Below, in pieces: positions 21,034-30,202 of a stretch of DNA of 64,000 nucleotides. Where the stretch lies: contig CBDFLJ010000001.1 of the NCBI GenBank assembly GCA_965248835.1, positions 1 through 64,000 on the forward strand. The letters are read 5' to 3'. Under the pieces are notes generated by a model that was not told the DNA's origin, did not search any database, and saw only the letters and a program-made list of their open reading frames with translations. How positions within the stretch are numbered: position 1 is the stretch's first letter; each line of letters begins with the position of its first letter. The translations under genes and the position numbers were made by a program. The stretch is from Alphaproteobacteria bacterium (GTDB lineage: Bacteria > Pseudomonadota > Alphaproteobacteria > MPNO01).

Positions 21034-21135
21034 CGTCGCGTGGTGTTTCGTCGTCCAAGGGGATGCCACGCGCTTTCCTCTCTTGGACGTTTCCTCCCTA
21101 CAATTCAGCCGCCCCTCGGGGCGGCTGCTTTTTTT
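21034..21135 (+). ncRNA. suhB/MmgR-family (alpha-r8) small RNA
   Basis: Core CTTGGACGTTTCCTCCCTAC followed by a GC hairpin and U-tract, with no + strand CDS upstream. It lies one gene from an N-formylglutamate amidohydrolase, the synteny reported for mmgR. 5' end approximate. Confidence 0.72.
21106..21135 (+). terminator. Rho-independent terminator of the sRNA
   Basis: CAGCCGCCC-CTCG-GGGCGGCTG followed by C and a run of 7 T. Confidence 0.8.
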
Positions 21136-21190
21136 GCCCGCCCTGCGCCGAGCGCATTATCCGTACAAGTCGGCCCGATTGGAACAAGCG

Positions 21191-22722: not shown

Positions 22723-22797
22723 GGGCGCGTAGCTCAGCGGGAGAGCACTACGTTGACATCGTAGGGGTCGCTGGTTCAATCCCAGCCGCGCCCACCA
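22723..22797 (+). tRNA. tRNA-Val(GAC)
   Basis: GGGCGCG acceptor stem, AGCTCAGCGGGAGAGC D-arm, CTACG-TTGACAT-CGTAG anticodon arm, GGTTCAATCC T-loop, encoded CCA. Confidence 0.97.
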
Positions 22798-26848: not shown

Positions 26849-28033
26849 ACGTCTCTATCGCATCGCCCGTCTTCAGCTTGTCTGCCGGGCAATGCCAATC
26901 CAGCACCGGGGCGGCTGAGAATCAAGCCGATTGTGGTCGTCCGCGGCTGGCCTGCTCCCAGGCTTGGCAGCACGCGTTGGTTTAGACCCTATTCCCCAGA
27001 TGAAGCACCGCCTTGATGACGCTGTGGCGAGATTCTTATATAAGAATCAATGGATTGTTATCGGAACAGGAAAGAAGGAATGGCCCACCCGATGGGTGAA
27101 AGCGAAACTGGGGTGCTGCGGCTCGATTTTGACCGTCGGCTGAAGCTGGAGTTCCATGGCTCGAAGGTCACATCGGATGCGGGCCTCCTTCCCTTCCGGG
27201 AACTCGATGATGCACTTGGCTTGACCGAAGTCGCCGGGGGACGTTTAGCGGACCCGCGAACCGGCAAGAACGGTCAGCATGGGATGACCGGGCTGTTCCG
27301 CCAATCGACCTTCGGTCGCCTCGACGGTTACGAAGACGTGAACGATGCCGACCGCCTTGGGCGTGATCCGGCCATGCGATGGATCGTCGGCGGGAATGCC
27401 ATCGCCAAGCAGGCGGCGTCCGCGAGCCAGATGGTACGCTTCGAGACGGAATTTCTGGCGACGGATGATAACATCGCTGCTCTTGCCGACCTGTCCGGGG
27501 CTTGGATCGACCGAGTTCATGACCGCCACCCACCGAAGAAGGTGATCCTCGACATGGGTTTCAGCGTCAGCCCGATCTACGGCGACCAGGAAGGGACAGC
27601 CTATAACCGTCACTTCGGCTGCACCTGCTACCATCCCCTGTTCTGTTCAATCACATGGGCGACTTGGAACGATGCCGCCTGCGTCCCGGCAATGTCCACA
27701 GTGCCAACGGATGGTGGGATGTCCTGGCCCCGGTCGTGGAACGCTACAAGGAACGGCAGGTTCGGCTCTATTTCCGAGGCGATGCGGCCTTCGCCTCGCC
27801 GGACATCTACGAATACCTCGAAGTCGAGAGCGTGCTCTACGCGATCCGCCTGCCCGCCAACAAGGTTCTCCAGGAGAGCATCGCCCATCTGCTCCGTCGC
27901 CCGGTCGGACGCCCGCTCAACCATGTTCGCCGTCAGTATGCCAGCTTCAGCTACCAAGCCGGATCGTGGGGCAGAAAACGCCGGGTGGTCGCCAAGGTCG
28001 AATGGATCCCGGAGAATTGTATCCCCGCGTCGG

Positions 28034-28058
28034 GCTTGATCCGCTTCGCGGCTCAAGC
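28034..28058 (-). repeat. 25-nt hairpin micro-element, copy 1
   Basis: Reverse complement GCTTGAG-CCGC-GAA-GCGG-ATCAAGC; interrupts the IS1380 motif PRVG[FI]VTN. Confidence 0.7.
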
Positions 28059-28298
28059 GTTACCAACCTGAGCCGCAAGGCCGAACGGGTCGTCGCCTTC
28101 TATAATCATCGGGGCACGGCGGAACAGTGGATCAAGGAGGGCAAGAACGCCATCAAGTGGACCCGGTTGTCGTGTCGCAAGTTCCGCAACAACGAGGTCC
28201 GGCTGCAACTTCACGCCCTGGCATACAACCTCGCCAACTTCATGCGGACCCTGGCGTTGCCGAAGGAGGTGGAGCACCGTTCGCTGGCCACAATCCGG

Positions 28299-28324
28299 GC
28301 TTGAGCGGCAAAGCCGATCAAGGG
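28299..28324 (+). repeat. 26-nt hairpin micro-element, copy 2
   Basis: GCTTGAG-CGGC-AAA-GCCG-ATCAAGGG; interrupts the R[EKL]VKIGAK motif and introduces a stop. Confidence 0.7.
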
Positions 28325-28660
28325 TGGTCAAGATCGGGGCCAAGGTCGTCAGCCATGGCCGCTACGTTACGTTCCAGATGGCCGAAGTGGCCGTGTCCCG
28401 CGATCTGTTCCGAAGCATCCTGGGACTGATCGACGGACTGCGGCGACCATCCCCGGCAACGGCCTGAACGGAGGAAAAACCGAGATGACGGAGGGAGACG
28501 TGTGTCCGGAGCGGAGGAAATCGGGCGGGATTGGGCTGTCAAAGCCGATCCAACGGTCGAAAGCTCAATGCGCCGGGCAGAAATGCCGTTCATGGTTCTA
28601 GGATGGGACCTCTTCTGCTACCATCGGGACCGAGTTTGGGAGTCATCTGGGGAATGTCGG

Positions 28661-30054: not shown

Positions 30055-30087
30055 GGGCGAGGACGGGAGCACGGGCCGGGCGTGCGT

Positions 30088-30202
30088 CCCTCGATACGGT
30101 CCCCTTCGACAAGCTCAGGGCAGGCTCTTCGGGACCTGCCCGGGATGAGGAATCCCTTCAAATTCCCCTCACCCTGAGTAGCCGCGAAGCGGCGTATCGA
30201 AG
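30088..30202. repeat. REP/RIME-like inverted dimer with a nested 24-nt insert
   Basis: Left arm (rc) CCTCATCCCGGGCA-GGTCCC-GAA-GGGACC-GTATCGAGGG; right arm CCTCACCCTGAGTA-GCCGC-GAA-GCGGC-GTATCGAAG; insert CTTCGACAAGCTCAGGGCAGGCTC at 30104-30127. Confidence 0.75.

Follow-up and report, generated by a model that had tools for sequence, protein, structure and literature searches.

The two hairpins that lie within an IS1380-family insertion sequence of the window, that is the whole stretch of 64,000 nucleotides analysed here from the source genome (G000; assembly GCA_965248835.1), are real and, on comparative evidence, mobile. The family to which they belong appears to be of a known but mechanistically unexplained kind. 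An earlier note on this DNA had claimed a very small, non-autonomous element that is conserved as a structure and inserts by replacement, and this description is borne out by other copies, empty alleles and covariation. Beyond the earlier claims, insertion appears not to be free but to recur at given sites and to be allele-specific, and short inserts of unrelated sequence have the same replacement geometry. The reading preferred here, to which about an even chance is given, is that of a non-autonomous micro-element resembling the small dispersed repeats (SDRs) of cyanobacteria, which would home from allele to allele with almost no co-conversion of its flanks ('micro-homing').

Structure and boundaries of the hairpin

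The arm pattern of the hairpin was matched twice in the window as compared with a mean of 0.13 in shuffled sequences, of which 0/100 reached two matches, and both copies fold with an outer stem of 5-6 bp, a G.A mismatch, an inner stem of 4 bp and an RAA loop (z ~ -4). The two hairpins are present where the earlier note had placed them. Comparison of empty and filled alleles in the source genome and at other loci defined the unit as a 23-nt core, CTTGA-G-stem4-RAA-stem4-A-TCAAG, which folds into a 5-bp outer stem, the G.A mismatch, a 4-bp inner stem and the RAA loop. The features of the window and the copies of two further inserts are collected in Table 1.

Table 1. Positions of the hairpins, of their IS1380 host in the window and of two other multicopy inserts in the source genome
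Feature	Position	Strand	Remarks
IS1380-family element hosting both hairpins	26987..28660	+	Pfam PF13701
Left terminal inverted repeat core of the IS	26991..27003	+	
Right terminal inverted repeat core of the IS	28643..28655	-	
IS1380 transposase pseudogene (DDE_Tnp_1_4)	27080..28464	+	frameshifts near 27640 and 28005 besides the two inserts
Hairpin core 1	28035..28057	-	CTTGA-G-CCGC-GAA-GCGG-A-TCAAG; site 1 (s1), G-F-I-V codons; replaces TTCAT
Hairpin core 2	28300..28322	+	CTTGA-G-CGGC-AAA-GCCG-A-TCAAG; site 2 (s2), R-E-K-L codons
GG adjoining core 2	28323..28324	+	second G at position of the Leu-codon C in intact relatives
TGA that core 2 adds to the transposase frame coming from upstream	28302..28304	+	read from the sequence directly
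20-nt palindrome in IS3 copies (L309-L316)	G000 C1:193941, 263972; C2:651194, 712791, 775570, 1481879, 1759370, 2404261		
Net 42-43 nt insert copies	G000 C1:188481, 258533, 2084098; C2:996693, 1077769, 2278435, 2301294, 2355681		

Comparison with empty IS1380 alleles defined the boundaries of both copies. Copy 1 replaces 5 nt (TTCAT) with a net gain of 18 nt; its outer G and C (28034 and 28058) are the third bases of host Gly and Ile codons and vary among filled alleles, and therefore 5 nt rather than 7 nt were replaced. Copy 2 together with the GG places 25 nt in the position of 6 nt (AGAAGC), with a net gain of 19 nt and of a TGA, and since its second G (28324) sits at the Leu-codon C of intact relatives, this base is likely to have arrived with the insert. 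Target duplication is absent at both copies. The positions, the net gains with the TGA, the replacement and the lack of duplication given in the earlier note accordingly stand, the last of these through the empty alleles, while its unit of ~25 nt and its loss of about 7 nt have to be corrected to a core of 23 nt and to losses of 5 nt at copy 1 and 6 nt at copy 2.

Two trivial origins were excluded. A native IS1380 sequence was ruled out by the empty alleles and by the intact relatives, among which PRVGFIVTNL was present in 108 of 111 parsed and an insert peptide in 0 of 120 long proteins. An assembly artefact was ruled out by short-read contigs, which bridge the window copies unchanged with 0-1 differences (four runs of one sample that is possibly the source of the genome, and that tests the assembly rather than giving independent support), and the hairpin is also found in other assemblies and in one isolate. 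Among the short-read contigs listed, which drop rare variants, no near-identical empty allele of the exact window IS copy was found.

Conservation of the fold was assessed on 27 hand-picked distinct variants, some columns of which are fixed by the search patterns: 99.2% of the cells were paired, and 35 two-sided changes, distributed over five of the nine pairs, compare with 7.8 after shuffling, compensatory changes being present in both stems. In a metagenome scan for other inner stems, in which pairing was not required by the search, the inner stem was fully paired in 56 of 68 copies. In a common variant the RAA strand contains a T.G wobble, and the opposite strand folds much more poorly, so that the RAA strand is probably the working strand. 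PMC13037366 describes GCGAAGC as a nuclease-resistant DNA mini-hairpin. No Rfam family covers the hairpin; the two Rfam matches of the window, a suhB/mmgR sRNA and a tRNA, are located at 21069-21142 and 22723-22794 and neither is near 28 kb.

A second copy of the window IS, 99% identical and with both inserts, is present at G000:C2:674160-675780, and further stops or frameshifts occur in most filled copies. Inactivation of the IS by the hairpin, as proposed in the earlier note, is likely at the window sites and is not universal across hosts, as an in-frame copy resides in three near-identical group II intron reverse transcriptase (RT) genes, of which the two checked are open frames. Ribosomal bypass at site 2 was weighed from the codon layout and found no support. 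Elsewhere in the window, positions 30085-30200 hold what is left of a palindromic repeat of the CTTCGACAAGCTCAGG type, which includes a GCCGCGAAGCGGC hairpin; next to it come fragments that resemble a decayed gene of the IS3 family.

Distribution, hosts and recurrent filling of the same sites

The genome search revealed nine copies in G000 (<=1 mismatch), all within five IS1380 copies at three sites. A scan of GTDB gave at least 119 loci and at least 122 matches in at least 72 genome titles; the titles among the matches listed are mostly Acetobacteraceae and other Alphaproteobacteria with a few Acidobacteria, and 0/72 are cyanobacterial. The exact pattern was present in 0 of 40 genomes of relatives, and at one mismatch in 8 of 400 genomes of a class sample, at least one of these being chance-like; a phylum sample gave 1/300, an unpaired chance match, and the order of genome G042 gave 12 positive genomes out of 120. 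Viral contigs yielded 0 copies and plasmids no full copy, a match in Nostoc being a chance coding match. Variants with other outer arms (CTTGG/CCAAG, GTTGA/TCAAC, CTCGA/TCGAG) reached 163 matches in G041 and 102 in G042, with 0 in controls. Neoroseomonas lacus (L069) is a cultured carrier. Chance matches were set aside at L025 (gshB), at L080 and L121 (the end of a Streptomyces kinase) and at L240, along with other unpaired metagenome matches.

The hosts are almost only other mobile DNA, namely REP-like repeats, about eight IS families and group II introns, and the enrichment in IS and other mobile DNA raised in the earlier note is supported by these host surveys. Among the GTDB matches listed, 69 of 122 lie in CCCTCYCCC..GGGRGAGGG-type repeats, and in REP-like repeat copies the hairpin often occupies both arms of an inverted pair. 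Of the other loci, 43 were run against Pfam, by which 27 were assigned to IS proteins (IS630, IS5, IS3, IS256, IS66, IS21 IstB and IS1380), three to ordinary genes judged to be chance and 13 to no family; several of the 13 were later attributed, partly by known family motifs, to IS256, to a group II intron or to other repeats. In genome G431 an AAC-loop variant lies, with the reading frame preserved, at the N-terminal end of an N-formylglutamate amidohydrolase gene (L175), the only credible single-copy host gene seen, and another in a tRNA-like remnant (L168). In G041 a group II intron RT is present in three copies of 99% identity (L305-L307), each with an in-frame CTCGA/TCGAG variant and, directly ahead of the YADD motif, another short in-frame insert that is unrelated to it; both of the copies checked have an open frame. 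As the duplicated window IS and this intron document, passive carriage with the host also occurs. Wherever other site types were compared, 4 or 5 nt were lost and nothing was duplicated, and this loss of 4-5 nt is constant over at least 20 site types.

Filling of the same sites is recurrent. In G000, site 1 and site 2 are each filled in three lineages, and filled IS1380 lineages are 71-81% identical, with third-position mismatches of 0.31-0.51 and cores that are identical or one base off. A single clade of site-1 filled alleles was rejected (p-AU 5e-9; 10 filled and 6 empty rows); for site 2 it was not rejected (p-AU 0.18 and 0.19), and the nearest relative of each of five filled site-2 alleles is an intact protein. 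Downstream of the site-2 stop, divergence is synonymous (0.14, 0.07 and 0.38 by codon position). The flank preference is weak, with ~0.7 bit at -1 and +1 (34 sites), and the motif matches 85 spots in one IS1380 ORF, so that it cannot explain the repeated use of four sites in the family. More than 85 sites of G000 that are homologous to sites filled in other genomes lack the 23-mer (IS5 42, IS630 36, IS3 7, and others), in a survey that overlooked one known site-2 copy. Two 'filled' flags outside IS1380 in this survey were discarded, one as spurious and one as a different insert, and a 1-nt deletion suspected next to site s3 of IS1380 proved absent once a closer empty allele was used for comparison.

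The 11-nt interior tracks the site and not the genome: 57 of 62 same-site pairs agree as compared with 15.4 after shuffling (0/20000 reach this number), in a test of 36 copies that are not independent. Single IS copies with two different stem variants occur in the window and at L071, L210 and L247. At site 2 a G at +2 is found in 12 of 13 filled rows, two of them from the duplicated IS; the intact proteins have Leu at this position in 110 of 110 parsed (10/120 not parsed), the near relatives of the window included, and an empty allele with flanks matching one filled allele reads AGAAGC-TG. A subgroup of IS1380 natively codes for Val there (L167, L173) and could be the origin of the +2 G allele. 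An extra T 4 nt upstream of the hairpin characterises 8/8 IS5 alleles and two IS630 alleles. At synonymous positions as near as 1-5 nt to the junction, variation persists and the bases are host-type; at site 1 the base at +1 itself varies and hence offers no co-conversion marker. At the IS630 FIDET site one inner stem is kept with two outer-arm types. Pairing of the stem with the flank in the manner of a guide was rejected, as a scan of 40 sites gave a best offset of +11 with a family-wise p of 0.004-0.008 and no base-pairing rule; the weak association is treated as unexplained or as chance.

Other short inserts share this geometry. IS3-family copies with 82-100% identity to one another harbour, at one site close to their 3' end, a perfect palindrome of 20 nt that has the CTTGA/TCAAG arms of the hairpin and takes the place of 5 nt in frame; its site is empty at C2:503521 and at L168, and it was found in one of 30 genomes searched. 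A 41-nt insert with a repeated GAGCATGCGAAC module occupies the IS630 DEK site at G000 C1:127384, with 12 empty copies in the genome, and its two junctions are identical to those of the 23-mer at the same site (L321, L325). Inserts related to it lie at C2:1481494, C2:1481633 and C2:1918765. A 39-nt insert with a G.A mismatch, a 5-bp stem and a GAA loop (G000 C2:476526-476564) replaces 5 nt in another IS1380 subgroup. In addition, a structured insert of net 42-43 nt is found at one site of a multicopy element, the empty copies of which are 92-96% alike, and further 20-nt inserts are present at C2:2260971 and C2:2401097. The 41-nt cargo at shared junctions and the two arm types at FIDET suggest that a site may be specified apart from an allele, and the unrelated inserts with their 5-nt loss point to an enzyme with a fixed geometry, perhaps with sites defined apart from the cargo.

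Candidate mechanisms of insertion

The site-bound variants, the +2 G, the extra T, the host-type wobble bases and the empty sites of G000 together favour copying from a filled allele with a tract of only a few bases. Under micro-homing, a filled allele would give rise to a single-stranded copy that anneals to the corresponding site of a paralogue still empty, where no more than the hairpin and 0-4 bases next to it would be introduced at the expense of 4-6 host bases. The single-stranded intermediate, with the RAA-loop strand as the better folder, is inferred, as is a rare de-novo capture of new sites of the form G, N4-5, G. The enrichment in IS, REP-like repeats and introns would then arise because only multicopy families supply donors and recipients, and the siting in conserved motifs because such motifs would permit pairing across a family; once in a host, the hairpin would also be copied passively along with it. 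The constant loss of 4-5 nt points to a trans-acting enzyme. Against micro-homing weigh the identity of ~75% between donor and recipient, which is low for ordinary recombination, the single clade that was not rejected at site 2, the varying +1 base at site 1, the 41-nt cargo at shared junctions and the two arm types at FIDET. The core, its covariation, the replacement without duplication, the repeated filling in diverged hosts and the site-bound variants with their quirks are shown by the comparison of alleles, and the support for micro-homing is comparative throughout, no donor-to-recipient event having been observed.

The search for such an enzyme covered neighbouring ORFs and the domains DUF559, Y1_Tnp, RVT_1 and GIY-YIG in five carrier genomes, and no mobiliser was found in it. 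Beside the GTDB loci no recurrent neighbouring ORF was detected among the matches listed, and the RAYT, GIY-YIG or RT gene flanked by the motif that the earlier note had envisaged did not emerge; neither G000 matches nor the neighbourhoods of the GTDB loci listed contained a longer element with the ends of the hairpin. Y1_Tnp (PF01797) was found in 1/5 carriers and is missing from G000, and for this reason the HUH/RAYT driver proposed earlier is unsupported. GIY-YIG was present in 5/5 carriers, in G000 only as a long, probably UvrC, frame, and was uninformative; DUF559 was present in 4/5 carriers and not in G000 (five carriers, no statistics); and RVT_1 was present in 5/5 carriers, four of them over the cut-off. 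The RTs examined are of group II intron types except for one unrelated protein, and that of G000 is frameshifted. A 411-aa RT at L295 (G042:C4:5621-6853) shares no more than 23-27% identity with the RTs of group II introns used for comparison.

An insertase or nuclease acting in trans could instead choose its target by a feature not visible in the flanks, cut out 4-5 nt and splice in any short hairpin cargo, so that recurrence would reflect hot spots and not allele copying. The constant 4-5 nt loss over the many site types, the 41-nt cargo at the shared IS630 junctions and the 5-nt replacements by the 20-nt palindrome of IS3 and the 39-nt insert of the other IS1380 group would all be expected of it, but it leaves the site-bound variants, the +2 G and the extra T unaccounted for, the flank motif and the flank-variant association without a pairing rule are weak, and G000 leaves dozens of the sites filled in other genomes empty; it is considered unlikely. 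That the hairpin belongs to REP-like repeats as one of their modules and travels with them through the action of their nuclease (DUF559 or Ssn/GIY-YIG), with IS insertions as rare accidents inherited thereafter in tolerated or bypassed IS lineages, would agree with its prevalence in one repeat type, often in both arms of inverted pairs, with DUF559 in most carriers, with the documented passive carriage and with a matching Arg codon in the +1 frame at site 2, read directly from the sequence. However, the site-1 alleles are polyphyletic, which already weakens this reading, G000 has neither those repeats nor DUF559 and yet harbours, both at site 1 and at site 2, three lineages that are filled, the long relatives lack an insert peptide and most filled copies have more stops or frameshifts; this origin is thus regarded as quite improbable.

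Site-bound variants, quirks and the absent flank co-conversion would all be yielded at once by a guided system, either bridge-RNA-like or an RT with guide and template, which with one template per target would place the hairpin in motifs that are conserved among mobile genes, and might thereby serve the host as an anti-transposon tag. The near-invariant target motifs such as PRVGFIVTNL and RVT_1 in every carrier would suit it, but no free-standing template or guide was found in G000, where all nine copies are inside IS bodies, the RTs are those of group II introns with one unrelated exception, most copies elsewhere lie in intergenic repeats in which nothing is inactivated, and excision of IS110 is scarless according to PMC11208160; such a system appears very improbable. 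It is tentatively possible, though doubtful, that these bacteria possess an undescribed 'remove five bases, write in hairpin' activity, a natural process that is oligo-templated or prime-editing-like, which would move several unrelated cargos of 20-50 nt between paralogues ~75% alike, co-convert a few bases at most and disable IS at their most conserved motifs.

Relation to known short elements and significance

SDRs are ~20-30 nt long (more narrowly 21-27 nt), embedded in other repeats and small transposons and, as far as is known, confined to a subgroup of cyanobacteria, and in SDR4-6 the hairpin is maintained by compensatory change. We know of no driver of SDRs. SDR1-8 of Nostoc and relatives were reportedly described by Elhai et al. 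2008 (Genome Res 18:1484). SDRs are also mentioned in PMC4390886, PMC3116915 and PMC2884548, a passage on SDRs giving SDR5 a precise recurrent insertion point in HIP1. The resemblance drawn in the earlier note is supported by length (23-nt core), structure with compensatory changes, residence in other repeats or mobile elements and a recurrent insertion point. In contrast to SDRs, the carriers of the hairpin are Alphaproteobacteria along with a few Acidobacteria, none of the 72 titles listed being cyanobacterial, and it targets transposase motifs and REP-like repeats instead of HIP1; allele-bound variants and junction quirks are demonstrated for the hairpin, and the likeness drawn concerns form and siting. 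Homing introns and inteins use fixed allelic sites in highly conserved motifs and spread from filled to empty alleles. The hairpin shares such sites and probably this direction of spread, but it encodes no nuclease or RT, no splicing was shown, target bases are lost and co-conversion extends over a few bases at most.

Conversion of GC clusters without co-conversion of the flanks is said to have been described by Wenzlau and Perlman 1990. According to PMC4478555, PMC8811140 and PMC4464245, the yeast mitochondrial GC clusters (var1 clusters, GC42) are short GC-rich palindromes of 30-80 nt with a constrained stem, in-frame gene insertions and an AG/TAG target duplication, which show unidirectional inheritance and exchange at homologous positions. 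The short palindrome, the stem under constraint and the in-frame insertions are shared, whereas the hairpin has 23 nt, no duplication, a loss of 4-6 nt, bacterial hosts and hosts only ~75% alike. REP/REPIN-RAYT systems and CGTC-type repeats with Ssn GIY-YIG nucleases, as described in PMC3116915, PMC3733652 and PMC11893778, likewise have an imperfect single-strand hairpin with a fixed mismatch, are non-autonomous and exceed 100 copies per genome; unlike them, the hairpin carries no GTAG/CGTC tag in the alignment and no flanked nuclease gene, and it inserts into REP-type repeats rather than being one, with Y1_Tnp in a single carrier of five. It differs from a MITE of a DDE insertion sequence, as 4-6 nt are lost and none duplicated, and from the footprint of IS110/IS1111, for which PMC11208160 gives scarless excision without loss of target bases, as it replaces target bases. 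On the features tested, the hairpin is thus no member of the REP/REPIN, MITE, IS110-footprint or GC-cluster types, and it falls outside the SDR host range. No description of the element was found in the literature searched, which covered few subscription papers.

To our knowledge, the movement of 20-30 nt elements has been an open question ever since the SDRs of cyanobacteria and the GC clusters of yeast became known. With the hairpin family come alleles defined as empty or filled, the stem variant, the +2 G and the extra T as markers of the donor, a cultured carrier and a 23-nt substrate, so that a reporter can put this question to a direct test. If an enzyme performs the exact replacement of 4-5 nt with so little homology, it would represent a new chemistry of short-insert editing. 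For its hosts, the hairpin would be a hyper-parasite by which IS copies are disrupted within conserved motifs, and the annotation of transposase pseudogenes is confounded by it.
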